64,000 bases of DNA from an uncultured Candidatus Saccharibacteria bacterium (lineage in GTDB: Bacteria > Patescibacteriota > Dojkabacteria > B142 > OLB20), in contig CAYQRB010000002.1 in the NCBI GenBank assembly GCA_964420145.1, positions 4,056 to 68,055 on the forward strand. The letters run 5' to 3'. The notes under the pieces are model-generated. The model ran no database searches. It saw nothing but the letters and a program-made list of their open reading frames with translations, and was not told the DNA's origin. Numbering within the stretch: position 1 is the stretch's first letter; each line of letters opens with the position of its first letter. The translations under genes were made by a program, and so were the position numbers. Below, piece by piece: positions 9,306-63,442 of this stretch.

Positions 9306-10409
9306 ATGCAAGAAATAAAAGAAAAAATAAAACTACAAGGAGAACGGATTTCAGATATTCAGAAGAAAAAAGATAGATCAGAAATTACTACAGAATTAGA
9401 AAATACAAAGCTTCTTGCTAATGACCAGTCTTTATGGGCTGATCAAGCTAATGCACAAAAGATTATGAAGAAAATAAGTGATCTCGGTGATGAGTTGGAT
9501 ATGTTAGATAGTATAGAAACGAAACTTACAGATATAGAAGTAATGGTAGAGTTACTAGAAGATAAAAGTACTGCTTCGAGTGGGCAAGATATTGAGGTAA
9601 TGAAAGAAATTAATTCTATGGTTAGCGAACTCGATAATATACTCAATAAAATAGAGATTACCACATTTTTAGGAGGAAAATTCGATCAAAGCGATGCGAT
9701 TCTCTCTATCCATGCAGGTCAAGGTGGTACAGAAGCAAATGATTGGAGTGAAATGCTAATGCGAATGTATCTTAAATATTTTCAAAAGCAGGGTTTTGAG
9801 AGTGAGATTACTAATATGATAAGAGGGAATGAAGCAGGGATTAATACAGTAACTATGGAAATCAAGGGACGGTTTGCTTACGGCTATTTAAAAAAGGAAT
9901 ATGGAACACATCGGCTTGTAAGAGTCTCCCCTTTTAATGCACAGGGTCTTAGGCAAACATCGTTTGCTTTGGTTGAAGTGATGCCTATTATAGAAAACGA
10001 TATTGATGTAAACCTAAATATGGACGAGATTGAATTTAGTGCAGTAAGATCTTCGGGTGCAGGAGGACAGAATGTAAATAAAGTGGCTACTGCTGTAAGG
10101 CTAGTACACATACCTACTGGTATTACCGTTTCTTGTTCTACAGAAAGAAGTCAATTACGCAACAAAGAATTTGCTTTGAATATGCTTAAAGGGAAGCTCT
10201 ACAATCTTGAACTAGAAAAGCAAGAAAAAGAACAGAAAGACTTAAAAGGAGAGCACAAAATTGCCGGCTGGGGTAATCAAATTCGCAACTATGTGCTACA
10301 CCCATACAAATTAGTAAAAGATTTGCGTACTGATGTAGAAAGTCAAAATCCTGAAGCTGTTTTGGATGGAAACCTTGAAGAATTTATAGAAGCCGAAATC
10401 CGTCTATAA
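9306..10409 (+). CDS. prfB: Peptide chain release factor 2, encoded without a programmed +1 frameshift
   Basis: SPF tripeptide (VRVSPFNAQG) and the GGQ motif (RSSGAGGQNVNK) are present. A single uninterrupted 367-aa ORF. Confidence 0.9.
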   Translation: MQEIKEKIKLQGERISDIQKKKDRSEITTELENTKLLANDQSLWADQANAQKIMKKISDLGDELDMLDSIETKLTDIEVMVELLEDKSTASSGQDIEVMKEINSMVSELDNILNKIEITTFLGGKFDQSDAILSIHAGQGGTEANDWSEMLMRMYLKYFQKQGFESEITNMIRGNEAGINTVTMEIKGRFAYGYLKKEYGTHRLVRVSPFNAQGLRQTSFALVEVMPIIENDIDVNLNMDEIEFSAVRSSGAGGQNVNKVATAVRLVHIPTGITVSCSTERSQLRNKEFALNMLKGKLYNLELEKQEKEQKDLKGEHKIAGWGNQIRNYVLHPYKLVKDLRTDVESQNPEAVLDGNLEEFIEAEIRL

Positions 10410-10437
10410 TCCTCTAAGGTCGTTTGAACTAAAAAAG

Positions 10438-10887
10438 TTACTTGTATAGTTTGTCTTCATAGGTAGATATTTTTTCTAACCTTCGTATATGCCGTGATTC
10501 CTCGCTAAAAGGGGTGTTCAACCATATTTCTATAATCTTAAAATCGGACTTAGGATTAAATGTTAAGCTGTCAAGGACTAAAATATTTGTATCATCGTCC
10601 GTGCGAGAAAGTTTTGCATGTGTTTCTGACTCACAATACCCTGCTCTCACACCTTTTACCTTATTTGTAGCTATACAGACTCCTATACCAGAACCACAGA
10701 TTATGATCCCTCTTGATTTCTCTTTCACTACTGTTTCGCCTAACATAAAGGCATAGTCAGGATAATCATCATCCCCATCGTATGTATGAGTACCTAAGTC
10801 TATTACTTGATAGTTTTTAGATAAAAGGAAGTTGTTAATCTCTTGTTTTGCATTAAAACCCTTGTGGTCAGAGGCAAGATAGATCAT
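10438..10887 (-). CDS. rpiB: Ribose-5-phosphate isomerase B (RpiB/LacAB family)
   Basis: IYLASDHKGF...DYPDYA...GIIICGSGIGVCIATNK matches RpiB motifs. Confidence 0.85.
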   Translation of the reverse strand: MIYLASDHKGFNAKQEINNFLLSKNYQVIDLGTHTYDGDDDYPDYAFMLGETVVKEKSRGIIICGSGIGVCIATNKVKGVRAGYCESETHAKLSRTDDDTNILVLDSLTFNPKSDFKIIEIWLNTPFSEESRHIRRLEKISTYEDKLYK

Positions 10888-10923
10888 AAGGAATTAAATA
10901 ATCTTTACTCAGTGTAACAGATA

Positions 10924-11550
10924 TTAAGAAATTGTTAAAAATTGTCCTGCAGTGATTAGTGCTTGGCTACCATCTGGAAGAAATCCAATACTAGTAGGAT
11001 TTGTTTCTAGTAATTTGTTCCATTGACTACCATCTCCATAGACTGCCTCTGCAATTTCCCACAGTGTATCGCCTAGTTGAACTTGGTAAGTTCCGGTGGT
11101 TATATCACCTTTTTTGTAATCAGTAGCCCTCCAAACTCCTGTTTGTGAAATTTTCTCAGCAGTTGTTTGCGCTCGTTTAAGGCCTGTTGGAGTAGAGGCC
11201 GTATCTCTTCTGATAGACTCCCCTCCTGCAATACTCCCTTCATCATCTTGGTTTTCTTTGTCCTTAGTGTCTCTATCATCTTGGGCTTTTTCTTCGTTCT
11301 TTTCCTGATTCTCTTGGTTATCTTTAATAAAATCTGGAAAGTTAATACTAACTCTATCTGAGAAAAATGGATAAAATACAAAAAATAATCCCAGAATAAT
11401 AAATACTGTTCCAATTAGTTGGAGGATCCAAGGTTTGATCCTAAGTCGTGAACTCTCGATATCTTTGATAACTGATTTTTCATAACTTTCTTTTGGTTCC
11501 TTTTTTGTTATCTTGTTACCAGGGTTGGATTTAGTAGACTCCTTTTTCAT
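10924..11550 (-). CDS. LysM domain membrane protein
   Basis: N-terminal TM helix, an acidic low-complexity linker, and a C-terminal LysM (YQVQLGDTLWEIAEAVYGDGSQWNKLLETNP). Confidence 0.7.
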   Translation of the reverse strand: MKKESTKSNPGNKITKKEPKESYEKSVIKDIESSRLRIKPWILQLIGTVFIILGLFFVFYPFFSDRVSINFPDFIKDNQENQEKNEEKAQDDRDTKDKENQDDEGSIAGGESIRRDTASTPTGLKRAQTTAEKISQTGVWRATDYKKGDITTGTYQVQLGDTLWEIAEAVYGDGSQWNKLLETNPTSIGFLPDGSQALITAGQFLTIS

Positions 11551-13699: not shown

Positions 13700-15832
13700 T
13701 TAGAGAGTAGCTTTTTTCCCTGAAAGTTTCTCGTAAATATCACGCATTTCTGCTGCAAGTTCAAACTCCATCATATCAGCATAGACCAGCATTTGGGTAC
13801 GAATATCTTCTAGTAGTCTTTGTTGTTCGTTTTTCTTGATGATATTGTAGCTTTCGGCTCTTTTTAGGATGTCTAAATCCGCTTTAGGTAAAGTTTTCTC
13901 TGTCTTTGTTTTACCAACCAGTTGGGTACGGATTTCTTTTGTGATTGTTTTAGGAGTTATATGATGTTTAATATTATATTTATTTTGAATTTCTCTCCTA
14001 CGGAATGTTTCAGTTATTGCCTGATCCATACTTTCGGTAACTTTTTGTGCATACATTATAACTCTACCCTCACTATGTCTAGCAGCTCTCCCTATGATTT
14101 GAATTAAACTCGATGAAGTTCGTAGAAAGCCCTCTTTATCAGCATCGAGAATTGCTACCAAGGAAACTTCTGGTAAATCCAGACCCTCTCTTAAAAGATT
14201 GACGCCGACTAACACATCATATTTCCCAAGCCTGAGGTTTTTTAGGATTTCTACTCTCTCTAATGCATCTACATCTGAATGTATATATTGTACAGAGATT
14301 TTAATGTCTCTTAGATAATCAGTAAGGTCCTCAGCCATTTTTTTTGTGAGGGTAGTTATCAACACTCTTTGTTTTTTATTTATTGTATCTTGTATTTCGA
14401 TTAGTAAATCATCTACTTGATTCTTGGGGGAATAGTTTTTTTCTAGAATAGACATATTTGGATATTTCCGATTTTTTATGCTTTTAATTAGTTTCTCTTT
14501 ATGTTCTATGAGATCAGGACGCAGATCTATTCGAGGATCCAAGAGTCCTGTGGGCCGTATTAGTTGTTCTACAAAACCACGGTAAGAACTGGGCATATTT
14601 TTAGGTTTTATAGTGTTTACACTTTGCTTGCTTTTTTCTAGTTCAAAGTTACGAGGTGTTGCAGAAACATATATTGCCTGGTTGATTCTTTTGTAGAATT
14701 CCTCAATCTTTAAGGGACGGTTATCGAGTGCAGCTTTAAGCCTAAATCCGTACTCTACTAAAACTTCTTTGCGTGAGCGATCCCCATTATACATACCCTG
14801 TACTTGTGGTAGTGTCATATGTGACTCATCTATAAAAAGTAACCAATCATCAGGGAAATAGTCTAATAGAGTTGATGGAGGGGAACCAGCTGATCTTTTA
14901 TCGATATACCTCGAATAGTTTTCGATCCCAGAACAATAGCCTATTTGCTCAAGCATCTCTATATCGTAATTAACCCTTTCGTTTAATCTTTGTGCTTCAA
15001 CTATTTTCCTCTTTTTCTTAAAATCTGCTACTTCTTTTTTTAGATCATCTTTTATATTCGGAATTACTTGCTTTAAAGATTCAAAAGGGGTTACAAAATG
15101 TTTTGCGGGATATATCTTAAATTCTGATAGTTTTTTAATTACCTCTCCTGAGAGTGGGTTGATAAGTTTCAAAGATTCTATTATATCTCCAAAATATTCC
15201 ATCCTCAGTGCATAATCTCCAGAAGCTAAATAAACATCAATAACATCTCCTCTTATCCTGTAGAGGCCAGAGTAAAAATCATATTCACTTCGTTCGTATT
15301 GCATATCATTTAGTTGAGTTAAAAGCTTTGATCGCTTATAAGACATACCTGTTTTAATATCTCTACTTAGTGCAAAGTAGTCATCAGGGTTTCCTAACCC
15401 ATAAATACATGAAACTGAAGCGACTATAATTGTTGGGTGGTTACTTAGTAGAGATTGTGTTTCAGAATTCCGATTTCTCTCTATAAATTCATTAAGCGTT
15501 GATTCTTTTTATATATACTAGTCTCGTCTTGTGATATAGGCTTCTGGTTGATAATAGTCATAGTAAGAGACAAAATATTCTACTGCAGTCTCGGGAAAAT
15601 ATTCCCTAAATTCTGAATATAATTGGGCAGCTAATGTTTTATTGTGTGCAAGGACAAGAGTAGGTTTTTGTATATTGGCTATAATATTAGCCATAGTAAA
15701 AGTTTTCCCAGAGCCGGTAACTCCTATTAGTGTTTGATGTTCCAAACCGTTTTTAATACCTGCGCTTAAAATATCTATAGCTTGTTGTTGATCTCCTGCT
15801 GGTTTGTATTGACTTTTTAAGTGGTATTTCAT
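13700..15832 (-). pseudogene. uvrB: Excinuclease ABC subunit B (uvrB) interrupted by two in-frame stops (TAG at 15518-15520, TAA at 15509-15511); otherwise full-length and collinear
   Basis: N-piece (15518..15832) reads [19 protein letters not shown]...[10 protein letters not shown]...[12 protein letters not shown]. In the same frame it continues *YI*KESTLNEFIERNR...IIVASVSCIYGLGNPDDY...RGDVIDVY... (13700..15346). This aligns residue-for-residue with the UvrB block DT[FY]IEKDASINE: TAG sits on the Thr position and TAA on the Glu. Confidence 0.8.
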
Positions 15833-15838
15833 TATTTA

Positions 15839-16999
15839 CTAATTTTTAGGATTATTGTTAACTAACTGCTTCATAAACTCACTATAAAAGTGTAGATTGT
15901 GTATTGTTGCCAATCGGTAACCACTTCCCTCCCCTATTTTAAGTAAATATCGCAAAAATGCCCTAGATATTGTTTTACAAGCGATACAACCACATTTGGG
16001 GTCTATTGGCCCCTCATCAAACTCATATCGAGAGTGTTTAATTCGTAAAACAGAATATCTACTAAACTCACCATCTTCGTTGTTTTTACTAATATAAAGA
16101 TAGCCATGTCTGGCGTTTCTAGTAGGTAAAACTGTATCAAACATATCCCAGCCGATAGAGATTGCGTATTCGATATTATCTGGAGTTCCAACTCCTAGTG
16201 CATAGCGGAGTTTATTTTGTGGAATAATTTCAGAAAGAAAGTGTAATAACTCTTTAAAAAAACCACCTTTGTGAGTATAATCCCAACTTCGTTTGGTTTG
16301 TAGAGGAACTCCTCCAAATCCATAAATATCAAAACCAATATTTTCTAGAGCTTCTAGGCTTTTTTTTCGTTGTTCAAAATTATTTGCCCCCTGAATTACT
16401 GCTGTTAAAAGAGGTCGTTTAACTTTTGGGTTATTAAAATCATTCTCAGTTAATTGATTTAGTTCCAAAAAAGCTTTTTTAGAACGAATAGCCCACTGTG
16501 TCGTCCTCTCTACTGATTTTTTAATTTTTGAAAGGCTAGTATCCCCAAGCACTGGTTCATCTAAGACAACCCTAATGTCTGATCCAATCTGATGTTGAAT
16601 TTGTTGAGAGGTTTCAGGAGACAGAAATTTATAATCCCCACTTCGTAAGTCCTGAAAACTACACCCAGCATCAGTGATTTTATTAGTTTTGTTTGTAGTT
16701 CTGTTTATCAAAGAAAAGACCTGAAATCCACCACTGTCGGTTAATATAGGATTTTTCCATTTTGAGAATTTATGAAGTCCTCCTAGTTTGGCAATCTTGT
16801 CGCTTCCAAACTTCTGATCAAGGTGTAGAGTATTTGTTACAATTGCTTTCACCCCTGTTAATTCAAGATCTCGATAACTCAGGTTGCTTATTGTTCCATA
16901 GGTAGCATCGGGCATAAATACAGGGAAACTCAAATCGCCGTGTAGAGTTCTGATATATCCATATCTTTTGTTAGTTTGGTTGGTGTTAATACTTATCAT
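15839..16999 (-). CDS. tgt: Queuine tRNA-ribosyltransferase
   Basis: FMPDATYGT...ILTDSGGFQVFSL and the C-terminal zinc site CGCIACK...H. Terminal TAG is immediately followed by TAA. Confidence 0.9.
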   Translation of the reverse strand: MISINTNQTNKRYGYIRTLHGDLSFPVFMPDATYGTISNLSYRDLELTGVKAIVTNTLHLDQKFGSDKIAKLGGLHKFSKWKNPILTDSGGFQVFSLINRTTNKTNKITDAGCSFQDLRSGDYKFLSPETSQQIQHQIGSDIRVVLDEPVLGDTSLSKIKKSVERTTQWAIRSKKAFLELNQLTENDFNNPKVKRPLLTAVIQGANNFEQRKKSLEALENIGFDIYGFGGVPLQTKRSWDYTHKGGFFKELLHFLSEIIPQNKLRYALGVGTPDNIEYAISIGWDMFDTVLPTRNARHGYLYISKNNEDGEFSRYSVLRIKHSRYEFDEGPIDPKCGCIACKTISRAFLRYLLKIGEGSGYRLATIHNLHFYSEFMKQLVNNNPKN

Positions 17000-17002
17000 A
17001 AA

Positions 17003-17779
17003 TCAGAGATTTAATTTTTTCTGTAAATCAATCCAGTTTTCCAAAGTAAGCTCTCCTGCTCTTATGGTAGGACTTAAATTCAGAGTAGATAAAACTTCTA
17101 ACACATTGTTTTTTTCGTAATTTTTTAAATTACTCGCAACGATTTTTCGTGGAGAAGAAAAACCTGTGCGAATCAGAGACCAGAGTATTTCGTGATTAGA
17201 AACTTTTGGTTTAATATTCTTAAAAGTTATTATCTGTCCGTCAACTTTTGGTACTGGATAAAATGATTTGGCACTAATCACTTTATCTAGTTTTACATCA
17301 GAATAAATGTTTGCGAAATTGCTTAGTAATGTCGCTTTTGGAGGTTTGAAGGCATATTCTTGGGCTACTTCTTTCTGAATGATAAAGCTAATTTTATCAG
17401 GCTTATTTGTAGCAGTAAGTAAATTATAAATAATTTTTTTTGAGACATTATAGGGTAGTGAACCTATAACTTTGTATTTTTCCCTTTGAGTAATCCGGTT
17501 TAGATTTATTTTTAAAAAATCCTGGTTGATTATATTGACTTGCGGATATTTGGAACTTAGGTAATTAATTAAATTGCTATCTTTTTCTATTAAAACTAAA
17601 TTATTAACAACTTTAACTAGCTCATCGGTTAATGCACCTTGTCCTGGACCAATCTCTATTACTAAATCATTTTTTTGTAAATCCAATAATTTCAATAAGT
17701 CTTGAATAGCAGATTTGTTTTTAAGAAAGTTTTGTCCTAGGCTTTTCTTGAAGATGTGGAAACCATTTTTATTGTTCAC
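17003..17779 (-). CDS. rsmA: 16S rRNA (adenine1518/1519-N6)-dimethyltransferase RsmA/KsgA
   Basis: LGQNFL...VIEIGPGQGALT...LIEKD matches KsgA motifs. Ends in TGA. Confidence 0.85.
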   Translation of the reverse strand: MNNKNGFHIFKKSLGQNFLKNKSAIQDLLKLLDLQKNDLVIEIGPGQGALTDELVKVVNNLVLIEKDSNLINYLSSKYPQVNIINQDFLKINLNRITQREKYKVIGSLPYNVSKKIIYNLLTATNKPDKISFIIQKEVAQEYAFKPPKATLLSNFANIYSDVKLDKVISAKSFYPVPKVDGQIITFKNIKPKVSNHEILWSLIRTGFSSPRKIVASNLKNYEKNNVLEVLSTLNLSPTIRAGELTLENWIDLQKKLNL

Positions 17780-20700
17780 TTTGTATATATTTTTTTAATA
17801 GTGTAATAAATTCGGGAGTAAGATTAACTTTCTTTTCTATACTTTTTTTAGTTTTGTTATCTCCGTAAAAAATTATTAATTTTACTCTTCCCGGGTTCTG
17901 GATTATAGCGTCTTTTATACTTTGTAGTCTATTCTTATCATTTTCTTCCGAGATATCAATAACCATTGTATTTTGAGATTTAATCTTATCAGCTTTTGCC
18001 ACATCATTTATGACCAGACTAAGCTCATCATTGCGTGTACTCATCGAGGCTTCTATAAATATAACACTATTTTCAATAAGCTCTGAGCTGATTTTCTCAT
18101 AAGTATCAGGAAATATTACTCCATCTATTTTTCCCTCCTTATCTTCAAGTTCAACAAATGCCATAGCCTTTGAGCTTTTTTTGGTGTATATCTTTTTTAC
18201 TTTAGATAAAAATACGATTAGTTTTACCTTAGTACCAGATGATAGCTTTTTTACTTTCTCAAGTGTTGTGAAGTTATTAAGGAAGATTAGCCTGCTATAT
18301 TTATCAATAGGGTGTTTACTAAGATAAACTCCTAGTAGTTCTCTTTCCCAATTCAATTTTTCGCTATCAGTGTCTTGGATAGTATTTGGTAGGGAGGTTG
18401 CGTGTATTTTTATATCTTCTGGTGTTCCACCAAATAGCATAGCTTGTCCTCCTAGCGTTGCTTCTTCGTTCTTTTTCACTTTCAAAAGTATGGTTGGTAA
18501 TACTTCTAACAACTGATTTCTTGATCCGAACTTATCAAAAGCACCTACTTTGATAAGGTTTTCTATGTCTTTTTTAGATATATTTTTTCCACCTACTTGT
18601 ATAATGAACTCATCTAGATTTTGAAAAGTACCGTTTTTTTCTCGGGTGTATATTATATTATCTATTGATTTAGAGGAAACGCCTTTTATGCCAGCTAGTC
18701 CATATCGGATCATTTTATCATTTTCAATTTTAAAGTCAGATGTACTTTTGTTGATATCAGGAGGAAGTAGATTAATCCCCATTCGTTTTGCTTCTTTTAA
18801 ATCTCTTTCGAGTTTATCAATCGTATTGATATCGGTTTCTATGAGACCTGCTAAAAACTCGAGTGGGAAATGGGCTTTTAAGTAGGCAGTTTGATAGGCA
18901 ATTAGAGAGTATGCAGCGCTATGGGATTTATTAAAACCGTAATCTGCAAAAGGTTCTAAGTATGAAAAAATCTTCTCCGCTATTTCTTGCTTTTGGCCAT
19001 TTTTAACAGCTTTTTTGAAAAACAGTTCTTTTTCTTTTGCCATTACTTCTGGTTTTTTCTTCCCCATTGCTCGTCTAAGCATATCTGCTTCTCCGAGAGA
19101 GTAGTTGGCAAACTTTACAGCAATATTTATAACTTGTTCTTGATAGATTGCAAAACCAAAAGTATTTTTAAGAATTGGTTCTAAAGAAGGATGGATATAG
19201 TCAACTTTTTGCTTACCTTCCCTTCGAAGAATATAGTCAGGGATATATTTCATAGGTCCTGGTCGATATGCAGCATTTAAGAAAATCAGATCTTCAAATT
19301 TATTTGGTTTTAGGTCTTTTAGATATTTTTTCATTCCTTCGGACTCAAATTGAAAAATTCCTGTTGTATTACCTTTTTGGAATAGTTCGTAAGTCTTTGA
19401 ATCATCAAGAGGGAGTTTGTTTATCTTTATAGTTTTCCCTTGAGATCTTTTGATTTGTTTTAGTGTATTTTGTATAACTGTGAGGTTAGAAAGCCCTAAA
19501 AAATCAAACTTCATCAGTCCTAGATATTCAATATTGTGTCCTTCTACCTGCGTGATGAGCTTATCTCCACGCATTTCCTTTTGGATAGGCACATAGTTTG
19601 TAATGGGGGCTGGTGTTACTAGGTAGCCACAAGCGTGTGTGGATACATGTCTAGCAAGGTTTTCGAGTTTAGAAACATAAGAAGCTAGTTCTTCGAGTTC
19701 ATCTGAATTTTTGATAATATCATCAAATTCTTTTACCTCAGCTCTCATCTTTTCGATACTATACACTCTGCCAAATTTAACTATTACCATTTTAGAGAGT
19801 TGGTCGGCAATTTGTAGATCAATTCCCATAACTCTTGCAACATCTCTTATCGCAGCTTTTGTTTTTAGTCGTCCAAAAGTACCAATAAAGCTTGTATTAT
19901 CTACCCCGTATTTCTCTGACATATAGTGGAATAGCTCGTCTCTACGATCATCTTGGAAGTCTATATCAAAATCTGGTGGAGATGGTCTCTCGGGGTTTAA
20001 AAACCGTTCAAAGATTAAATCAAATTCAAAGGGGTCTAACTCTGTAATACCTAATATGTAAGATACCACACTTCCGGCTCCAGAACCCCTACCCGGTCCG
20101 ACCATAATACCTTGTGATCTTGCCCAGTCAACATAGTCTTCGACTACTAAAAAATAATCATCGTACCCTTTTTCGTGAATAGTTTTAAGTTCGTAGTCAA
20201 TCCGTTCTTGAAGTTCTGGTGTAAGCGTTTCGTATCGTTGGGGGAGTTTGGTAAAAACATTTGTTTTGAGCTTTTCTTGTGTTTTGTTGGGGGAGAGGGT
20301 TTGGTCGTATTTAGGCTGTACCCGCTCAAACATAATATTATACTCCTCTACACTATCAGCTAGCCTTTGTGTATTTGTAACTGCATCAGGATAATCTGAA
20401 AATAGTTTTTTGAGTTCATCAGTATTTTTAATGTAGAATTCAGTTGATCCATACTGTCTCCTCATCGGATCATCTAGTTTTTTCCCGTCATTTATACACC
20501 AAACTATTTCTTGAACTTTATGATCTTCCTGCTCTATGTAATGAGTATCACAGGTCGCAACATAGGAGATATTGAGATCTTGTGCTATTTTAATTTGTTT
20601 AGGTATTAGGTTATGTGATTCTTCAATACCATTTCTTTGGAGTTCTATATAGACTTCATCACATGATTTTTGGAGAAATTTAATCCAATCTATTGCCTTT

Positions 20701-25449: not shown

Positions 25450-25683
25450 ATGGCACAAATAGATAGAGACATCAATATTTCTGTCCTTGCTATAAATTAT
25501 CCTGAAATAGTTGACTTTTTAATGCAAGAGTATGGTTTCCACTGTATAGGGTGTTTTGTCGCAGAGTTTGAAACACTAGAGGAAGGTGCTAGAGTACACG
25601 GGATCGTAGATGACGATTTTGACGAAATGCTTTTAGCTATTAATAACAAGGCAAAAGAAATAAGTAATAGCAAAACACCTTAA
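25450..25683 (+). CDS. DUF1858-like small redox protein (hybrid-cluster-protein-associated disulfide domain)
   Basis: INYPEIVDFLMQEYGFHCIGCFVAEFETLEEGARVHGIVDDDF fits the DUF1858 pattern. The ATG at 25450 is preferred over the GTG at 25417. Confidence 0.55.
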   Translation: MAQIDRDINISVLAINYPEIVDFLMQEYGFHCIGCFVAEFETLEEGARVHGIVDDDFDEMLLAINNKAKEISNSKTP

Positions 25684-25931
25684 AAAGGTAATTCCATTTT
25701 TTCCTCAGAGTCATTATCACTGGTATCATCGTCTTGATAGTTTAACTTGATCTCATTGATCTTCATCTCAATTCTCTTTAAATCCTTTTTAACCTCAGAG
25801 ACTAGTTTTGATGCTTCTTCATATTTTTTTACAGCTTCATCAAGCTCAATTTCCTCTTGATTATTAAAATATTGACTAATTTTTTCAAGTTCAGTGATTT
25901 TTTCTTGTAATTTTATTTTTTTATCAGCCAT
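25680..25931 (-). CDS. xseB: Exodeoxyribonuclease VII small subunit
   Basis: 83-aa helical, acidic protein with an XseB-like profile (FE..L..LEKI...LE...EL.L..A...YE.G..L). Directly downstream of xseA. Confidence 0.8.
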   Translation of the reverse strand: MADKKIKLQEKITELEKISQYFNNQEEIELDEAVKKYEEASKLVSEVKKDLKRIEMKINEIKLNYQDDDTSDNDSEEKMELPF

Positions 25932-25949: not shown

Positions 25950-27212
25950 TTATTTTATCTTTTTGACTATAGATGTGATTTCGCCATCTTTTACTACTAG
26001 GTTTATTTGGTCACCTAGCGAAACTTTACTAATAGAACTTATTATATCTCCATTATTCTTTTTTATAATAGCATATCCTCGTTGAATAACATTTTTAGGA
26101 TTTAGAGAATTAAATAAGTGTTCATAATAAGATATTTCTTTTAACGAGTTTTTAATATATTGATCGAACCTGTCTAGTATAGAGGAAGTAGTAGCTACTC
26201 TGTGTTTATAATTATTTAGATAATTTATAATTTCAGTTTTGAAACTAAAACCATAATTATGAAAAATTGTATTTTGTTGATTTAAAATAGAAAGGATCTT
26301 GTCGTACAGGTTGTCTATATAGATTTCTTTCGTAGTAAGTGTAATTTGTTGTTTTATCAAATTATAGATTTGGTCCGTCTGTGTCGTGATAGCGGTAATA
26401 ACAGAGGTGGTATTAGAGATGAAGTAGTAGGCGGCCTGTGAGGGTGTAGATGCTCTTATATCTGCAGATAACTCAGCTATTGTGATATCCTTTTCGTGAC
26501 CTATTGCAACCATAGTTGTAGATTTGCTAGCAAAAATTGCTCTTGCCACTTTTTCATCATTAAAGGCGCTCAAGTCTTCTAAGCTCCCTCCTCCTCTAGT
26601 GAGCACAATGCAATCGTAATCAAATGTCTGTGCTGATTTAAGTGCGAAAACAACTTCTTTCACAGCCTGTTTTCCTTGTACTGCGACTGGGTATAGATCA
26701 ATATCTAAACAATTTGAATTTTCTTGAAGTATTTTGAGAAAGTCGGTTGAGGCTGCAGAACCTTTGGCTGTGATTAGTGCTATTTTGGTAACTAACCGTG
26801 GAAGCGGTCTTTTTCTCTAAACATCAAAGAGACCTTCTTTCTCTAGTTTGTTTTTTAAAATTTCAAGAGCTTTTGAAATAGCACCATCTCCAAGTGGTAG
26901 TATCTTATAGATTGAAATACTAAATTTACCGTAAGGAGAATATATTTGGGGCCGACCCCAAACAGCTACTTCTATTCCTTGCTCGATCATATTTAGTCCT
27001 TCGATTCTTGGTGCATATCCGCTAATACTCACTATTGCATTTTCCTGTTTATCTTTTAATACAATGTTAACCCCTTGTCCCTTGGATATTGAAAATTCTG
27101 TTACTTCTCCTTCTACTACTACTTCTCCGATAGTTTGTATTTGTAAGTTTACCAGGTCATTAAGTTGTTTAACTCCTAGTCTAAGGGTGGTGTTTGAATT
27201 AGATATATTCAT
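25950..27212 (-). pseudogene. xseA: Exodeoxyribonuclease VII large subunit (xseA) interrupted by a single in-frame TAG (26817-26819); otherwise full-length
   Basis: N-piece carries the OB fold (...VWGRPQIYSPYGKFSISIYKILPLGDGAISKALEILKNKLEKEGLFDV). In the same frame, after TAG, it continues RKRPLPRLVTKIALITAKGSAASTDFLKILQ...YPVAVQGKQA...LTRGGGSLEDLSAFNDEKVARAIF...GHEKDITIAELSADIRASTPS. This is collinear with E. coli XseA ([13 protein letters not shown]...). Confidence 0.8.
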
Positions 27213-27384: not shown

Positions 27385-29514
27385 ATGACTACTCAAAGCA
27401 AACTTTTAACTATAAAAGAAGGGTTTTCCACACTGAAAATAGAGCAGGTTTACAAAGATAGTGCATTAGTAAATATAGAGAGATGGCTAACTGGAGAGGA
27501 GTTCACAGAATATATCCCACAGATTGATTATCTGATTGAGTCAAGAAAATGGGATTTATTATTAGATTGTTTTTATCAAGTTGTCCCGTTTGGTACAGGA
27601 GGAAGACGAGGCCCAGTAGGTATCGGCCCCAACAGGATCAATATGTGGACTATACAAACATCAGCACAAGGGCATTCTCAATATTTACTAAAACAGTTCG
27701 GAGACGAGGCAAAAGAAAGAGGTGTGATTATAGCTTATGATGTTAGAGCGTATCTAAACGAAACAGAGTATGATAATAATAGACCAAACCCAGTATACGG
27801 ACTGGATTGTAAAACGCTAGCAATTAAAGCTTCCGAAGTCTATGTAGCCAATGGTATTTATGTCCGTATATTTTCTGAGATTACACCTACTCCCGAGCTT
27901 TCGTTTATGGTTCGTGAGCTAAATGCGGTTTCGGGGATTATGATTAGTGCGAGTCATAATCCACCTGATCACAATGGTCAAAAGGTCATAAACGAAACCG
28001 GCGGTCAGTTAGTCCCACCCTTTGATCAGAATCTTGTAGATGTTGTAGTAAACGAAGTTAAGCAGATACAGGTAGTAAATTATGAACTAGCTAGGAGAGA
28101 TAATTTAATAATTGATATAACAAAAGAACAACACGAAAAATATATAGAAGCTACTAAAAAGATTTCTCTTAATTCAAACTATAGGGGAATTAAGATTTTG
28201 TTCAGCCCATTACACGGAACTTCTGCCCACACAATACCACAAATACTCTCAGGGATGGGGTTTGACTGTATACTGGATAAGGCTTCCAGTGTACCTGATC
28301 CGCGATTTTCTACAGTAATGTTTAATATCCCAAATCCCGAGGTTATAGAATCTTTTTCCAATATTATTCCACAAGCAGAAGGAGTGGGAGCTGAGATTAT
28401 ATTATCTGCAGATCCTGATGCTGATCGCATTGGACTTATGTCTAGGGAGCTAGATAAGTGGAGGTTTTATACAGGGAATGAAATTGCGATATTAATTACT
28501 AAATATGTTCTTTCCGAACTCAAAGAAAATGGCAAGTTACTACCTAGTAACACATTGGTTAAAACTGTAGTTACTACAAATATGATTTCTGTTTTGGCAA
28601 AACATTATGGAGTAAAAATAGAATCAGATCTCTTGGTAGGTTTTAAATATATTGCAGAAGTAATGGATAACCTCGAGGTTTCAGGTAAAATCTCGGATTT
28701 TTTACTAGGTATGGAGGAAAGTCACGGATATACAGCAGGTAACTATATTCGCGAGAAAGACGCTTCTGTTCCTGCTATATTGATTTCAGAACTTGCCTCA
28801 AAGCTAAAAATGCAAAATATGACATTGGGTGAGTATTTGGATAATATTTATCAAGAATATGGATATTTCTTAAATTATCTAACAGAGATAAGGCTTCCCG
28901 GTGCAGAAGGAATGTCCTCTATTGCTAAAATCCAAAGCACTATTAGGGAACAAAAGCCACTCAAGTTTGGTGCTTTTGATGTTAAATCTATTATAGATCG
29001 CTGGGAGGGTGGTGACTTTTTGTCCCCTACTGACAAGGAATCTCGCAATGTATTAATAATTAATTTTGAACCGGGAGACTCTCTCCATCAACTACAAGTA
29101 GTTGTAAGGCCTTCTGGTACTGAGCCAAAGTTAAAAGTATATATTGAAATCGGTGCCAAGCCTGATTCATCCAAGACGCTAGATGACTTAAAGTTACTTT
29201 CTCAAGATTATAAAGATAAACTTGAAAAGGCAGTATTGACTTATATGTATAGTATAATTGGTATTAATTTCCCAGAGAGAGGATTTCTTTTGTTCTGGCA
29301 ACTCCCTGCACAAAGTAAGATGAAGTACTTTGAAATCGAACCAGAGATTGCTAATTTAAAATTAATAACAGACCTTACGGAGAGAAAGCAGAAACTGGAT
29401 AAGTTACTTGCGTTTTTGGGAGCTGATCCTGTTGTAAAAGTAGATAAGGCGTTTAGAGCAAGATATGAGACTGGTATTTTAGAATATTTGGACCTAATAA
29501 TTTTATATGACTAA
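27385..29514 (+). CDS. Alpha-D-phosphohexomutase (phosphoglucomutase/phosphomannomutase family) with a C-terminal extension
   Basis: Active-site motif GIMISASHNPPDHNG. 709 aa. Stop overlaps the start of the downstream helicase gene. Confidence 0.8.
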   Translation: MTTQSKLLTIKEGFSTLKIEQVYKDSALVNIERWLTGEEFTEYIPQIDYLIESRKWDLLLDCFYQVVPFGTGGRRGPVGIGPNRINMWTIQTSAQGHSQYLLKQFGDEAKERGVIIAYDVRAYLNETEYDNNRPNPVYGLDCKTLAIKASEVYVANGIYVRIFSEITPTPELSFMVRELNAVSGIMISASHNPPDHNGQKVINETGGQLVPPFDQNLVDVVVNEVKQIQVVNYELARRDNLIIDITKEQHEKYIEATKKISLNSNYRGIKILFSPLHGTSAHTIPQILSGMGFDCILDKASSVPDPRFSTVMFNIPNPEVIESFSNIIPQAEGVGAEIILSADPDADRIGLMSRELDKWRFYTGNEIAILITKYVLSELKENGKLLPSNTLVKTVVTTNMISVLAKHYGVKIESDLLVGFKYIAEVMDNLEVSGKISDFLLGMEESHGYTAGNYIREKDASVPAILISELASKLKMQNMTLGEYLDNIYQEYGYFLNYLTEIRLPGAEGMSSIAKIQSTIREQKPLKFGAFDVKSIIDRWEGGDFLSPTDKESRNVLIINFEPGDSLHQLQVVVRPSGTEPKLKVYIEIGAKPDSSKTLDDLKLLSQDYKDKLEKAVLTYMYSIIGINFPERGFLLFWQLPAQSKMKYFEIEPEIANLKLITDLTERKQKLDKLLAFLGADPVVKVDKAFRARYETGILEYLDLIILYD

Positions 29515-32500
29515 TTTCTCTAAAGAATACAAACGGCTTAATCCTGAGCAAAAACTGGCGGTAGATACTATAGAGGGTCCGGTTATGGTAGTAGCAGGCC
29601 CTGGTACAGGTAAGACTCAAACACTAGCCTTGAGGATCGCAAATATTTTACTAAAAACTCAAATTGACCCTAGAAATATACTCTGTCTCACTTTTACCGA
29701 AAGTGCAGCATTAGAAATGCTTACTCGCTTAAGGCGTTTTATTGGCCCAGATGCATATAAAGTTAGAATTTTTACATTTCACGCTTTTTGTGGATACCTT
29801 ATGTCCTCAAATCTCGAGAAATTCCCACAGATTACTGAAGATAACGAAAATATTGATGAAAGTGATAGATACGAAATTTTATTAAATATCTTGAAAACTC
29901 TACCTGTAAAAGACTCTTTAAGAAATATAAATAATGAGGGGACAAACATAAAAGATGTTAGTGAGGCAATTTCTAGTTTAAAAAAGGAAGGAGTATCACC
30001 AGAAAAACTTGGACTAATAATAGAGAAAGAAAAAGAATATCTAAAAAATACTAGAAAGTATTTTACCGAGTTTCTAGCAATCAATGCTAGGAAAATTACT
30101 GCTATTGATCAACAAAACTTGTATAACAATCTTTTATCCAGTGCTGATTCAACGAGTATATACACAAAAGGAGTAGCAGAGCTAATCAGAGAATATGAAG
30201 GTCAAAGCAGTACTCAATTTAAGAAAGGTGTTCGTAAGATATTTGAACGACTTGATAATTATAATTATTTCCCCAAGTTGGAATCTCTGAAAAATATATA
30301 TGAACGATATCAGGATGAACTTAGGAAAAGTAAGCAATATGATTTTGAGGATATGATTATGTTTGTATTGGATAGACTTATACAAGATCAAGATTTTCTC
30401 AGTAGTGTACAAGAGGAATTTCAATATATATTAGTTGACGAATACCAAGATACAAATGCTTCACAAAATGAAATAATTCAGCTTATCGGAAGTTTTTACG
30501 ATAATCCAAATCTCTTTGTAGTAGGTGATGATGATCAATCCATTTACCGTTTTCAGGGAGCAAATTTAGAAAATATTCTACAATTTTCCAGAAACTATAA
30601 AAACTCTCTTAATATCATAACCTTAAAAAATAATTATCGAAGTCAGCCGTATATTTTGCAAGCTTCAAGGAAGGTTATAGAGGACGCTGAAAACCGTTTA
30701 GAGGATGAATTCCCCGAAGTTGATAAAAATCTAGTACCTAACAGGAAAGCGATTTCTAAAAAGATAGAACTTGGTGTATATAATACACAAGAAAGTGAAA
30801 TAGCTGATATTGCTAGCAAGATAAAACTCTTATTAAAGGAAGGCACAGATCCAGGAGAGGTTGCTGTTATATTTGCCAAAAACGCAGATATGGAGCCTTT
30901 TGTAGAGATATTTACTAAGGAAAAAATTCCTTTTCAGGTATCAAGGTCGGGAGGTGTAGTTAATAATATACATATTAAAAATATTCTAATTCTTTTGGAA
31001 TATCTTCAAAATCCATATACAGAGGAGCTACTCTCTAGGATTTTATATATGCCTTATTTTGGTTTTGATAATCTTGATGTTTTTAAGATCATTAACTTTG
31101 CCTATCGTAAAAGATTAGATATTTACAGAATTTTAATTACGGATACATTGCTTTCTGAGTCAGGAGTTACTAATATTAAAGTTTTTCAAAACTTTCTTAA
31201 AGATATCTCAGATTGGCATAGAGAAATTGTTGTTATGCATCCAGCACAGTTTTTTCCTTTTATAATTAAAGAAGCAAAAATCCTGGAGTATTTAAGTAAA
31301 CTAGAAGACAATTATTTGGAGTTAAATAATTTTCATATTTTATACGATTTCTTAAAGAAACATTTAAGGGCTAATTCCAAATTCAACTTTGAAGATTTAG
31401 TAAGAAAAATTAATCTAATAAGTGAATATAAGCTAGGTGTTTTGAATAGAACTAATATTGTAGAAACATCCAAAGTAAATATTTTGACGGCACACAAGTC
31501 CAAAGGCCTAGAGTTTGAACATGTTTTTATCCCAGACTTATTAAGCAGTAAATGGGAAAAGTCCAGAGGTAAAGCTGGTTTGAAGCTACCTCAAAGTATC
31601 AATATTCACGACTACACTACAAATGAAATTGATGAAAGAATACGATTATTTTTTGTCGCATTAACTAGAGCTAAAGATAATATATATCTTTCTTATCCCC
31701 TACTTAATGGAGATGGTAAAGAAAATAAACCCAGTATGTTTATTTCAGTGATAACTCCGGAATTAATTGAGGAAAAGAGTTTTGATATATCCGAAAGTGA
31801 CCATAAAGAGCAACTTATACTTTCGCTTAGCGAGAGTGTAGATATATTTAGTGATAAAGGAAAGGTCTTTTTAAGTAGCCTTTTGGAAAATTTTGCATTA
31901 AGTCCTACAAGTTACAATAACTATAAAAAATGTCCTCATTGTTTTTTTCTTACAGATATTGTTCGTATACCTAGTGCTATGAGTATATCCTCTGTTTATG
32001 GAAGTGTAATACATAAGACTCTAAATCTCTTTTTAGGTAAATTTTATCGGACAAAAGTTCTACCTAGCATGCAAGTGTTAATCGATATGTATTTAACAGA
32101 GCTAAAAAAACAATTTCTTGATCCCAACCAAATCAGAGATCTAGAAGAAAAAGGAAAAGCTACACTAGAAGTTTTTTATAATGAAAAATTATCTTCTGTC
32201 AATTCAACCTCTCTAACAGAAATAGATTTTGGTAGATACAAAATTAATATTGATGGAGTTCCCATCAAAGGAAGAATAGATAGAATTGATTTTATGGACG
32301 AAGCTATAAACAGAGTCGAAGTAGTTGATTATAAAACAGGAATAGAAAATTCACAAAACACAAGTGTTACGAATAAAGGTCCTTATTATGTTCAGCTTTT
32401 GTTTTATAAACTACTAATAGAAAACTATCCTAAATACAACTGGGAAGTGAAATCAGGTAAAATAGTTTATGTAGAACCAAGTAAAATTGGAGAACCACAA

Positions 32501-32656
32501 AAGGATAGAGAGATGGTTTTGCCAGATGAAGATGTGAATTGGCTTAAAGTAGAACTTAAAGATACTTATTCTTCAATTATGAATATGGAGTTTGGTATTA
32601 AAAATAAAGGAGATTGTTATAATGAAGAATTACATAATATTGATTTTAAGTTTTAA
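29507..32656 (+). CDS. UvrD/PcrA-family helicase fused to a C-terminal PD-(D/E)XK (RecB/Cas4-like) nuclease domain (AddA-like)
   Basis: Walker A (AGPGTGKT), motif II (VDEYQDT) and motif VI region (TAHKSKGLEFEHVFI). C-terminus has a CPHC cysteine pair and GRIDRIDF...VVDYKTG nuclease motifs. 1049 aa. Confidence 0.8.
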   Translation: MTNFSKEYKRLNPEQKLAVDTIEGPVMVVAGPGTGKTQTLALRIANILLKTQIDPRNILCLTFTESAALEMLTRLRRFIGPDAYKVRIFTFHAFCGYLMSSNLEKFPQITEDNENIDESDRYEILLNILKTLPVKDSLRNINNEGTNIKDVSEAISSLKKEGVSPEKLGLIIEKEKEYLKNTRKYFTEFLAINARKITAIDQQNLYNNLLSSADSTSIYTKGVAELIREYEGQSSTQFKKGVRKIFERLDNYNYFPKLESLKNIYERYQDELRKSKQYDFEDMIMFVLDRLIQDQDFLSSVQEEFQYILVDEYQDTNASQNEIIQLIGSFYDNPNLFVVGDDDQSIYRFQGANLENILQFSRNYKNSLNIITLKNNYRSQPYILQASRKVIEDAENRLEDEFPEVDKNLVPNRKAISKKIELGVYNTQESEIADIASKIKLLLKEGTDPGEVAVIFAKNADMEPFVEIFTKEKIPFQVSRSGGVVNNIHIKNILILLEYLQNPYTEELLSRILYMPYFGFDNLDVFKIINFAYRKRLDIYRILITDTLLSESGVTNIKVFQNFLKDISDWHREIVVMHPAQFFPFIIKEAKILEYLSKLEDNYLELNNFHILYDFLKKHLRANSKFNFEDLVRKINLISEYKLGVLNRTNIVETSKVNILTAHKSKGLEFEHVFIPDLLSSKWEKSRGKAGLKLPQSINIHDYTTNEIDERIRLFFVALTRAKDNIYLSYPLLNGDGKENKPSMFISVITPELIEEKSFDISESDHKEQLILSLSESVDIFSDKGKVFLSSLLENFALSPTSYNNYKKCPHCFFLTDIVRIPSAMSISSVYGSVIHKTLNLFLGKFYRTKVLPSMQVLIDMYLTELKKQFLDPNQIRDLEEKGKATLEVFYNEKLSSVNSTSLTEIDFGRYKINIDGVPIKGRIDRIDFMDEAINRVEVVDYKTGIENSQNTSVTNKGPYYVQLLFYKLLIENYPKYNWEVKSGKIVYVEPSKIGEPQKDREMVLPDEDVNWLKVELKDTYSSIMNMEFGIKNKGDCYNEELHNIDFKF

Positions 32657-32659
32657 ATA

Positions 32660-33070
32660 ATGGAAAACCACACTGTAATTGTCCAATTTGATTACGACGA
32701 GAACTATGCAACAGTAGTAGATTTAATTTGCTTTAATCTAGGTGTTGATAGTGGGAAGTATTTCCGAACCATTAAAGATGCTCATACATATTTGACAATG
32801 ATTGATAAATCTAAAGAGTTTCCAGATATTGCTATAATTACTAACTATCTCGGTCGAAGCAGTATAGATGGTGAAGAAGTAGCTAAAAAATTAAAAATCA
32901 TAAGTCCTGATACTACCATTATCGCTTACACTGAAGATGACGAAGCGGATTGGGGTGATCATTTGGCTCTAAAATCAGGAGATGGGGAAGATAAGTCTCT
33001 TATTACTCTACTGGAAAAACTCACAAAAACCACTTTTAACTATGATAATTCCAAAGAGGTCTCTAACTAA
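32660..33070 (+). CDS. Small acidic protein, possible stand-alone CheY-like receiver fold lacking the canonical phospho-acceptor Asp
   Basis: Receiver-like pattern: VIVQFDYDE...PDIAIITNY...IDGEEVAKKLKIISPDTTIIAYTED. Begins 4 nt after the helicase gene. Weak similarity only. Confidence 0.35.
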   Translation: MENHTVIVQFDYDENYATVVDLICFNLGVDSGKYFRTIKDAHTYLTMIDKSKEFPDIAIITNYLGRSSIDGEEVAKKLKIISPDTTIIAYTEDDEADWGDHLALKSGDGEDKSLITLLEKLTKTTFNYDNSKEVSN

Positions 33071-44223: not shown

Positions 44224-46191
44224 ATGGCACAATCATTTGATCTTATAGGACAAAGAAATATTCGTATTGAAAAAGCTAATAAGCTTAGGAAAATCGGAAT
44301 TAACCCCTACCCTTCTGTTTCCAGAAGAAATACAAGTACGCAAGAAGCTAGGGCTAGTTTTGAGGATAATGATGGAAAAAGCGTGGTAGTTGCAGGGAGA
44401 TTAATGTCTTGGAGGGAGCATGGTGGAGTAGTTTTTGGAAATGTTCAAGACCAAAGTGGATCTATCCAGCTATACATAAAGTCTGAAGTAATAGAAAAAA
44501 CGAACCCCAAAAAAGGAAATATAGGTTTTGAAGACCTACATCTCTTAGATATTGGTGATATTGTAGAGGCTGTGGGATCTGTTACTAAAACCCAAAAAGG
44601 GGAGATTTCTATTTTGGTATATGAACTACGACTTTTAACTAAGTCGATTAGGCCTCTACCCGACAAACGGAAAGGTTTACAGGATAAAGAGAAAATCTAC
44701 CGCCAAAGATATCTGGATATGATTATGAATCCTGATAAAAGATGGAGGTTTGTTAAAACAGCAGAGATTGTTTTTGCCATTAGAGAGTTTTTAAATAGTA
44801 AAGGTTTTTTAGAAATCAAAACACCAATCATTCAGCCATCTTACGGGGGTACACTTGCAAAACCTTTTCAAACACATGTAAATGCATTAAATACTGATTA
44901 TTATCTTGCTATTTCTCACGAACTGTACTTAAAAAGGCTTATCACTGCTGGTTTCGAAAATGTTTATAACATAACTGGGTATTTTAGAAATGAAGGAATT
45001 GATCGTACTCATAATCCAGAGTTCCAAATGGTTGAAACTATGACTGCTTTCAAAAACTATGAGTATAATATGGATTTAATTGAAGATTTATACAAGTATG
45101 TAGCTACCAAGGTTTTCAATAAAACAGAATTTGAGATAGCAGGACATTCTATAGACTTTAGTAAAGATTGGCCCAGGATTAAAATGATAGATGCTGTTAA
45201 AACATATGCCAGACACGATTTTAATAAGATTCAAACTATAGCAGAAGCACACAAGATACTCTCCCTAGAAGGGATAAACTCAAAACCAAAAACGATTTCA
45301 GAGTCAATGGTAGAGATTTTTAAGGAAAAAGTTGAAAGTAAGTTAATAGAGCCGACCTTTATTTATGGTCATCCAGTGGAAATTTCTCCATTAGCCAAAC
45401 GAATGGATTCTGACTCTCGGTTTGTAGAACGATTTGAGATTTTTATTGGAGGAATAGAAGGAGGAGATAACTGGACTGAGTTAAATGATCCAGTAGAGTT
45501 ATTTGCTAGGTTCAAAGATCAATTTGACCGTAGAGATAATGGAGATGAAGAAGCCCACCCAATGGATATTGACTTCTTAGAAACTATGGAATACGGAATG
45601 CCTCCAACAACCGGTCTAGGGCCAGGCATTGAAAGGTTGGCTATGATGCTTACTGATACAGAATACATAGATGATGTATTGTTTTTCCCTATGATGCGTC
45701 CTGCACAAATTACAAAGTCTCAGACGGAAATATATGGGGAAAAATATGTACAAGGTTCAACCAAAAGCTCGAAGCAAGATTTTAGTAAAAAGATGGTGAT
45801 TGTAGTAAATAAAGAAGTTAAAGGCTGGCAGTTAACCAACACCATTGCTCATATCTCAGCATATTTAGGCAATAAAATCCCACAAGCTCAATTTCAGTCC
45901 AGGGATAAGTTTATTCTCAAAGACGGAGAAATTAACTCCAACTCCCAATATGGGATTGTTACTCTAACCGCAGGACCCGCTCAACTCAAAAACTTGCTAG
46001 AAAGGATAGAAGAAACAGGGCTTCCTCATCTGGTTTTTGTAGATGAAATGATAGAGATGGGTAACGACGATGAACTCAGTGATAACCTATCACAAAAAGC
46101 TAAATCAGAACTGAATTATCTAGGAATTGGAGTGTTTGGAAATGTTGATGAAGTTGAGAAACTTACAAAAAAATTTAGCCTGTACAAATAA
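44224..46191 (+). CDS. lysS: Lysine-tRNA ligase (class II) with a roughly 160-aa C-terminal extension
   Basis: N-terminal OB anticodon-binding domain, class II motifs (...FRNEGIDRTHNPEFQMVE...GLGPGIERLAMMLTDT...FPMMRP), then an extra KKMVIVVNKEVKGWQLTNTIAHISAYLG... domain. Confidence 0.9.
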   Translation: MAQSFDLIGQRNIRIEKANKLRKIGINPYPSVSRRNTSTQEARASFEDNDGKSVVVAGRLMSWREHGGVVFGNVQDQSGSIQLYIKSEVIEKTNPKKGNIGFEDLHLLDIGDIVEAVGSVTKTQKGEISILVYELRLLTKSIRPLPDKRKGLQDKEKIYRQRYLDMIMNPDKRWRFVKTAEIVFAIREFLNSKGFLEIKTPIIQPSYGGTLAKPFQTHVNALNTDYYLAISHELYLKRLITAGFENVYNITGYFRNEGIDRTHNPEFQMVETMTAFKNYEYNMDLIEDLYKYVATKVFNKTEFEIAGHSIDFSKDWPRIKMIDAVKTYARHDFNKIQTIAEAHKILSLEGINSKPKTISESMVEIFKEKVESKLIEPTFIYGHPVEISPLAKRMDSDSRFVERFEIFIGGIEGGDNWTELNDPVELFARFKDQFDRRDNGDEEAHPMDIDFLETMEYGMPPTTGLGPGIERLAMMLTDTEYIDDVLFFPMMRPAQITKSQTEIYGEKYVQGSTKSSKQDFSKKMVIVVNKEVKGWQLTNTIAHISAYLGNKIPQAQFQSRDKFILKDGEINSNSQYGIVTLTAGPAQLKNLLERIEETGLPHLVFVDEMIEMGNDDELSDNLSQKAKSELNYLGIGVFGNVDEVEKLTKKFSLYK

Positions 46192-61432: not shown

Positions 61433-63421
61433 ATGGACGATGCATATTTTGGAAATAAAAAGGTTTGTATAACTCAAAGGCGTTATCTTGGCTCTAAAAC
61501 CAGGCTACTTTCATTTATTGATAATATCATTGAGCAAGAAAAGATAGAGTTTGATTCTTTTGCTGATATCTTTGCTGGAACTGGAACTGTTGCTAATCAT
61601 TTCCATAATCGCTCAAAAATCATTGTTAATGACATTTTAGATTCAAACTCTCATATCTACTCTGCCTTTTTTGGTGAAGACGAAATCAGAGAACAAAAAT
61701 TAAAGGAAAGATTAAAATATTATAACGATATTGAAGTTAAGCAATATGACGAAAATTATTTTTCAAAAAACTTTTCAAATACCTACTTTGATGCAGAAAA
61801 TGCAAAAAGGATAGGAATTATTAGAGATGACATCGAAAAGTTATTTGAAGAAAGAATAATCACACATAGAGAGAAATCGTATCTACTCACATCACTTATA
61901 TACGCTCTTGATAGAATTGCCAATACAGTCGGGCATTATGATGCATACAGAAAAATTGATATTCCGAGCAAAAAATTATTTTTACTGCCTCTTGATATAA
62001 CAAACTCGCAGTTCACTGCTGAAATCTACAAAAATGATGCGAATGAATTGGTAAAGAAAATTAAAGCAGATGTTGTTTATATTGACCCACCATATAATTC
62101 ACGCCAATACTCTGATGCATATCATTTACTAGAAAACATAACTACTTGGAAAAAAGAAAAAGTTTTTGGTGTAGCCAAAAAAATTAACCGCTCTCATATT
62201 AAAAGTAAATACAATATGAAATCGGCTGGCGTTGCCTTTAGTGATTTGATAGACAACATTAGTGCAAAATATATCCTCGTGTCTTATAACGATATGGGGA
62301 CATCGGGCAACGCCCGATCACAATCACGAATAAGCGACCACGAAATTTTATCGGCACTAAAACGGCGAGGAGAAGTTCAGATTTATGAAACAGATTTTAA
62401 ACAATTTACCACTGGTAAATCAAACAAGGACGACTTAAAAGAACGCATATTTTTATGCAAAATAGATGTTGAGACAAAAGCAAATAGTAAAATAATTGCG
62501 TCAAAAAATAATCCTGTTCAAAGTGGTTTTGTTAAATCACCGCTTAATTACACTGGTGGAAAACATAAACTTTTGCCACAAATAACAAAATTGTTCCCGA
62601 ATGATATTAAAACTTTTTATGATGTATTCTCAGGCGGTGCAAATGTCGGTATAAATGCAACCGCACGAAATATAATCTGCATTGAAAAAAATCGCTATGT
62701 AGTAAATCTACTAAAACTCATTCAAAATGATAATTTTGAGAATTTGAACCAAAAAGTACTTGATATCATAGATGATTTTGGATTAAGCCAGAGTTATATC
62801 AAAGGCTACGACCATTATGGCGTTGATAGTTCGTCGGGATTAGGTCAATACAATAAAGAAGCTTTCTTAAAACTTCGCAATGAATTTAATAAAGAAAAAA
62901 CTAGAATTGATTTATTGCTAGTGCTTATTCTGTATTCTTTCAACAATCAGATTAGATTTAATTCAAAGGGCGATTTTAACTTGCCAGTTGGCAAACGAGA
63001 TTATAACGGCAGTTCAAGAAAGAATATCGCCGCCTTTAATCAAATATCAAACGAGAAAAAAATAGTATTCAAAAGTTGTGATTTCCGTGATGTTGAAAAA
63101 ATGTCATTAGTAAAAAACGATTTTATCTATCTTGACCCACCGTATCTGTTAGGTCTTGCTAGTTATAACGAAATGAGGGGCTGGACAGAAAAAGATGAAA
63201 AAGACTTATATGCATTACTTGCAAAGTTAGACAGAAAAGGCATTCGCTTTGCCTTGTCCAATGTCTTGGAACACAAAGGCAATGTTAATGAAATAATGAA
63301 AAATTGGGCAGAAAAATATAAATATAATGTTCATAAATTAGATTATCATTATAAAAACTCGAATTATCACTCCAGTGCAAAGAACAATAAGACAATAGAG
63401 GTACTTATTACAAATTACTGA
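61433..63421 (+). CDS. Fused tandem D12-class (Dam-like) N6-adenine DNA methyltransferase (two MTase domains, type IIS-style M subunit)
   Basis: Domain 1 has YLGSKTRLL, FAGTGTV and VVYIDPPYNSRQY. Domain 2 has NYTGGKHKLL, DVFSGGANV and FIYLDPPYLLGLASY. Two complete D12/DPPY modules, as in M.FokI/M.AlwI-type enzymes that methylate both strands of an asymmetric site. Confidence 0.85.
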   Translation: MDDAYFGNKKVCITQRRYLGSKTRLLSFIDNIIEQEKIEFDSFADIFAGTGTVANHFHNRSKIIVNDILDSNSHIYSAFFGEDEIREQKLKERLKYYNDIEVKQYDENYFSKNFSNTYFDAENAKRIGIIRDDIEKLFEERIITHREKSYLLTSLIYALDRIANTVGHYDAYRKIDIPSKKLFLLPLDITNSQFTAEIYKNDANELVKKIKADVVYIDPPYNSRQYSDAYHLLENITTWKKEKVFGVAKKINRSHIKSKYNMKSAGVAFSDLIDNISAKYILVSYNDMGTSGNARSQSRISDHEILSALKRRGEVQIYETDFKQFTTGKSNKDDLKERIFLCKIDVETKANSKIIASKNNPVQSGFVKSPLNYTGGKHKLLPQITKLFPNDIKTFYDVFSGGANVGINATARNIICIEKNRYVVNLLKLIQNDNFENLNQKVLDIIDDFGLSQSYIKGYDHYGVDSSSGLGQYNKEAFLKLRNEFNKEKTRIDLLLVLILYSFNNQIRFNSKGDFNLPVGKRDYNGSSRKNIAAFNQISNEKKIVFKSCDFRDVEKMSLVKNDFIYLDPPYLLGLASYNEMRGWTEKDEKDLYALLAKLDRKGIRFALSNVLEHKGNVNEIMKNWAEKYKYNVHKLDYHYKNSNYHSSAKNNKTIEVLITNY

Positions 63422-63442
63422 TTTTTATGGCATAATGAGGCC

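Follow-up and report, generated by a model that had tools for sequence, protein, structure and literature searches.

An in-frame TAG in the xseA gene of a Dojkabacteria bacterium, private to one assembly and probably artefactual

We analysed a 64,000-base stretch of a Dojkabacteria contig (the window) in which xseA, the gene for the large subunit of exodeoxyribonuclease VII (ExoVII), is interrupted by one in-frame TAG. This TAG is probably a base-call, consensus or template-damage artefact, and the true gene would be intact and functional, as judged from comparison with sequences of the same strain. On this reading the locus would be an ordinary functional xseA-xseB operon of a bacterium of the Dojkabacteria (candidate division WS6, Patescibacteria), and the true xseA product would be a 420-aa ExoVII large subunit with a DNA-binding OB fold, a catalytic domain and an XseB-binding coiled coil. 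Glu132 has become a stop in one deposited assembly through one G-to-T change (GAG to TAG, coding strand, window position 26819). Its likeliest source is a miscalled base, a wrong consensus or one damaged template molecule, which would have got into that assembly where coverage was thin, and an 84-bp burst of purine-to-T changes in uvrB would have the same origin.

The xseA-xseB locus

The features of the locus are as follows.

25950..27212, minus strand: xseA (exodeoxyribonuclease VII large subunit), 420 codons plus stop, broken at codon 132 (translation and Pfam)
26817..26819, minus strand: in-frame TAG at codon 132 of xseA; the T at 26819 is the sole base unlike the conspecific GAG
26820..27212, minus strand: XseA N-terminal fragment, aa 1-131, OB-fold DNA-binding domain (PF13742)
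25950..26816, minus strand: xseA open frame past the TAG, aa 133-420, with the catalytic domain, the XseB-binding coiled coil and the C-terminal segment (PF02601)
26661..26663, minus strand: GTG at codon 184, the first in-frame ATG, GTG or TTG after the TAG (ORF list and sequence)
25680..25931, minus strand: xseB (small subunit), intact, 83 aa (PF02609)

An earlier note on this DNA had described the gene as xseA with a lone in-frame TAG that separates its OB fold from its catalytic domain, and both translation and domain matches agree. The frame from 27212 to 25950 contains 420 codons and exactly one internal stop in conceptual translation, lying on the minus strand in the context GAA GGT CTC TTT GAT GTT TAG AGA AAA AGA CCG CTT CCA. 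Residues 1-131 matched the OB-fold family PF13742 at aa 13-104 (E = 1.3e-10), while the piece starting directly 3' of the TAG matched PF02601, Exonuc_VII_L, over profile positions 6-314 of 315 (E = 2.8e-66); the TAG sits in the linker, with the OB fold on one side and the catalytic domain on the other. The best protein matches were ExoVII large subunits from Candidatus Dojkabacteria (WS6), within the Patescibacteria/CPR lineage, and the intact form of the protein (P0123, described below) scored 314.8 bits on the NCBIfam model TIGR00237 for xseA (cutoff 180). A six-frame scan of the window found xseA to be the sole gene with two long same-frame stretches split by a single TAG. The downstream xseB, which the same note had called intact, proved to be so: the product of 25931..25680 matched PF02609 above the Pfam cutoff (E = 3.6e-7), and a cluster look-up placed the identical protein on 12 contigs of the collection. 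Its score on TIGR01280 was 32.4 bits, slightly below the 35-bit cutoff.

The locus resembles that of E. coli, in which XseA carries an OB fold, a catalytic domain, a helical XseB-binding region and a C-terminal segment in the same order (PMC3439923, PMC10835039), the OB fold being the DNA-binding domain. Both share the RGGG...GHxxD motif and an adjacent xseB. Residues D157, R206, H239 and D242 were invariant in our alignment of homologues (A1), and from this motif and the similar numbering we take them as the counterparts of E. coli D155, R205, H238 and D241, which nuclease activity requires (PMC3439923); E. coli XseA itself lies outside the alignment. The difference from the family lies in the frame, as conspecific and related sequences are uninterrupted and codon 132 is TAG in one assembly only. 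The uninterrupted frame expected of XseA is broken in the window and unbroken in all eight same-strain contigs fetched, and the locus is a standard XseA/XseB member in every tested respect but the interrupted frame of this one record.

Same-strain contigs and the spectrum of private changes

P0123 is a 420-aa XseA that agrees with the conceptual protein of the window at the 419 other residues and carries Glu at position 132. Its contig count and longest contig match those recorded in the cluster look-up for the identical XseB. We read 17 contigs for P0123 and fetched eight of the loci (L082-L089), which are Logan contigs from eight different sequencing runs. All eight xseA genes differed from that of the window at gene position 394 (window 26819) alone, where the fetched loci have G (GAG, Glu) and the window has T (TAG). 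In L082, 21,262 of 21,263 nucleotides were identical to the window and the sole mismatch was base 26819. Codon 132 is GGG in a 91%-identical relative (L001), and among the more distant homologues of alignment A1 residue 132 is E, G, S, T, D or A, a variable linker position. By these comparisons the ancestral codon 132 is GAG (Glu). The earlier note had placed the TAG one mutational step from a sense codon, which holds; the codons it proposed, CAG or TAY, are not those found in the eight same-strain contigs or in the relative. As an outcome counting against it, the note had named read evidence for a sense codon at the site, and such a codon was in effect found, GAG, in other assemblies rather than in the MAG's own reads.

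The truncated XseA products (131 aa and 237 aa) were on record from one NCBI contig (68,254 bp) only, and by cluster look-up no Logan contig carried them. An exact look-up of both xseA fragments in the contig index returned no match, and the JGI metagenome contigs, scanned for the xseA site with either base, likewise gave none.

We extended the comparison to the whole window using 20 same-strain loci (L082-L101), which span all 64,000 bases at a mean depth of 3.9 independent contigs. At positions with a depth of at least 4, there were 10 at which every locus disagreed with the window, namely 26819 and nine within 15449-15532. The latter fall within uvrB, as listed here.

13700..15832, minus strand: uvrB, a gene of 710 codons in the conspecific contigs that the window shows interrupted by TAG at 15518-15520 and TAA at 15509-15511
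15449..15532: nine window-private substitutions in 84 bp (comparison with fetched loci)

The private uvrB positions are 15449, 15462, 15475, 15487, 15500, 15510, 15512, 15519 and 15532. Through them codons 105 and 108 become stops (TAG and TAA); four of the changes are missense (P101T, V116F, Y120N and A124E) and three are synonymous, in accord with the earlier report of a second DNA-repair gene carrying a lesion. UvrB is intact at 710 aa in the conspecific contigs, and both uvrB fragments were on record only from the NCBI contig that holds the truncated XseA. Read on the plus strand, the nine changes are G>T (four), A>T (four) and C>A (one), with eight of the nine being purine to T. The derived segment folds more weakly than the ancestral one (-17.9 vs -25.2 kcal/mol), and hairpin perfection was rejected as the source of the cluster on this ground. 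For a templated origin within the window, by gene conversion or template switching, the matches listed, all for the ancestral segment, were chance ones of 9-15 nt only, and judged from these no donor was identified in the window.

Each of the ten private changes is a transversion that yields T:A (A:T>T:A at four sites, G:C>T:A at six). Natural polymorphism in the same contigs comprises 130 sites with 112 transitions and 18 transversions (86% transitions), and the two spectra differ sharply (Fisher p = 2.3e-8), so that the private changes stem from a process other than the one behind natural variation here. With three nonsense, four missense and three synonymous effects among the ten, no selective filtering was seen, and no common sequence motif, such as a methylation motif, was seen at the ten sites. 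A purine-to-T spectrum is expected when A is inserted opposite abasic purine sites or 8-oxoG, be it in vivo or on a damaged template molecule, and its fit to real in vivo damage counts against an artefact. In favour of one, late cycles of older Illumina chemistry are documented to miscall G, and then A and C, as T (PMC2745764). The ten changes resemble consensus errors and interrupted genes of MAGs in being singletons of one assembly, in their dense local burst, in their unnatural spectrum and in showing no trace of selection. They are unlike such errors in that there were no indels and in that the rest of the 64 kb was free of errors against the other assemblies, so that the presumed errors would be extremely localised. 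We infer that the nature of the change is technical rather than biological.

Several observations on the population accompany this comparison. The strain is near-clonal over at least nine sequencing runs (accessions SRR14... to SRR35...), and several same-strain contigs were 100.000% identical to the window across 4-22 kb. Two contigs of run SRR23814903 were more divergent, with 88 differences in L093 and 40 in L098. Those of L093 were bunched in tracts, such as 10394-11013 and 14285-18987, which suggests recombination.

Alternative readings of the TAG

The gene around the TAG is under purifying selection, as estimated from divergence against the 91%-identical relative, where dN/dS was 0.086 for the whole gene, with 0.090 in codons 1-131 and 0.085 in codons 133-420. 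More than 100 homologues from Dojkabacteria and other Patescibacteria were full length. Progressive decay, or a decaying pseudogene, was rejected: there is a single substitution, dN/dS is low on both sides of it, the homologues are intact, and the partner gene xseB is undamaged, its product being the same as in conspecific contigs. The earlier note had named progressive decay in orthologues as an outcome that would count against it, and none was seen. That note had also considered expression of the gene by readthrough or as a split protein, and neither fared well. A functional split gene, with the OB-fold and catalytic domains made as two polypeptides that assemble with XseB, is suggested by a stop placed exactly in the inter-domain linker. 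It is nonetheless highly improbable, as the frame offers no ATG, GTG or TTG from the TAG up to codon 184, and translation resumed at the GTG there would give 237 aa that lack the invariant Asp157 (taken as the essential D155 of E. coli). The domain severed would be the one that binds DNA in the E. coli enzyme, and none of 120 listed homologues is split in this way, apart from the fragment of this contig itself. Since no start precedes codon 184 and a restart loses Asp157, xseA as written would give an OB-fold fragment by itself, with no active nuclease. Full-length XseA could come from the written sequence through programmed readthrough or reassignment of TAG (a suppressor tRNA, pyrrolysine or an altered code), which would restore a perfect protein, residue 132 being a variable linker position. 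We give this hardly any credence. With 32-35% G+C, the window has a high coding density when read with the standard bacterial code, and the stops of its 65 long open frames are TAA (42), TGA (13) and TAG (10). The genes ending in TAG include tgt, uvrC, an aldehyde dehydrogenase (Aldedh) and an AI-2E transporter, with lengths equal to the gene calls in same-strain contigs. None of the six tRNAs of the window has a CUA anticodon; as TAG ends real genes and no such tRNA is present in the window, TAG is an ordinary stop here, and a genetic-code change or suppressor tRNA was rejected. Internal TAG codons were found in the window in xseA and uvrB only, the latter three codons from a TAA. An in-frame TAG conserved at codon 132, as expected under readthrough or reassignment, is absent even within the strain. 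RF2 is the sole release factor in the window, a point on the side of readthrough, but with RF2 only the window's release factor says nothing on UAG. There is thus no support for programmed readthrough, for an altered code, for a conserved split gene or for progressive decay, given a private TAG, its use as a normal terminator, no tRNA-CUA in the window and a dN/dS of 0.086.

That E132* (GAG>TAG) is a genuine nonsense mutation of very recent date, fixed or prevalent in the population sampled by this MAG, is a more serious rival, although we regard it as doubtful. The mutation would be a fresh null allele that yields the OB-fold fragment and no active ExoVII, and the uvrB knockout may share its origin, in a strand-coordinated burst of mutations caused by DNA damage. 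In its favour, the deposited consensus carries the change. Two further points also count against an artefact: at 68 kb the contig is long, which suggests adequate rather than generally poor coverage, and both private events struck DNA-repair genes, which by our own count make up ~16% of the window (chance of two independent hits ~0.03, calculated post hoc), a hint of biology. Eight of the nine uvrB changes are purine to T on the same strand, as would be expected for lesions in single-stranded DNA bypassed with A, and a stop is not an unlikely outcome, as G>T would make one at 17% of the G positions in xseA. The allele is, however, missing from all eight fetched contigs of an otherwise identical strain, and no neutral private changes accompany it elsewhere in the 64 kb. 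Nine substitutions with two stops in 84 bp are unlike ordinary mutation and drift, and the spectrum is unlike the natural polymorphism of the population. In an extended form, a natural sub-lineage of the near-clonal strain would have lost nucleotide-excision repair (uvrB) and ExoVII (xseA) almost simultaneously through a strand-coordinated purine-to-T burst at single-stranded lesions bypassed with A. This is unlikely; if true, the double loss would mark the birth of a repair-deficient, potentially mutator CPR lineage. An artefact in the one assembly is still the reading we prefer for both loci.

Annotation and other genes of the window

Reassigned or read-through stops are known from amber-recoded phages, from Pyl-decoding organisms and from the CPR groups Gracilibacteria and Absconditabacteria, in which UGA encodes Gly. 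As some CPR lineages use altered codes, recoding readily comes to mind when a CPR gene contains an in-frame stop. All that the present case shares with such systems is that a conserved gene of a CPR bacterium is broken by a stop in its frame; it differs in that TAG is a terminator, that the in-frame TAG is neither conserved nor found across genes, and that the window holds no cognate tRNA. The main value of the result is one of quality control: the same-strain assemblies show a private one-base change. For annotation, xseA should be given as intact, or at most as a strain-specific null allele, and its TAG should not count as genome decay, repair loss or stop-codon readthrough in Dojkabacteria. 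The same holds for the uvrB of this contig.

Other genes of the window were noted in passing. The release factor gene prfB (RF2; 9306-10409, plus strand; TIGR00020, 439 bits) is one unbroken ORF of 367 codons and lacks the programmed +1 frameshift common to many bacteria. A 1049-aa UvrD-helicase/PD-(D/E)XK nuclease (AddA-like; 29507-33070, plus strand) ends in TAA and is followed by a same-frame ORF of 136 aa that had no Pfam match; this arrangement is not a lesion, since the same two-gene layout occurs in the 91%-identical relative. A 655-aa class II aminoacyl-tRNA synthetase (44224-46191, plus strand; tRNA_anti-codon and tRNA-synt_2) also matched DUF2000, an uncharacterised family, in the precomputed Pfam results for the identical Logan protein. 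At 61433-64000 (plus strand), two D12-class N6-adenine methyltransferase stretches lie in a 662-aa protein; after its TGA comes, in the same frame, an AlwI-type restriction endonuclease (603 aa in L100), and the two genes look like a type IIS restriction-modification system. Position 62836 showed a synonymous TCG/TCT difference against the sole other contig covering the site.
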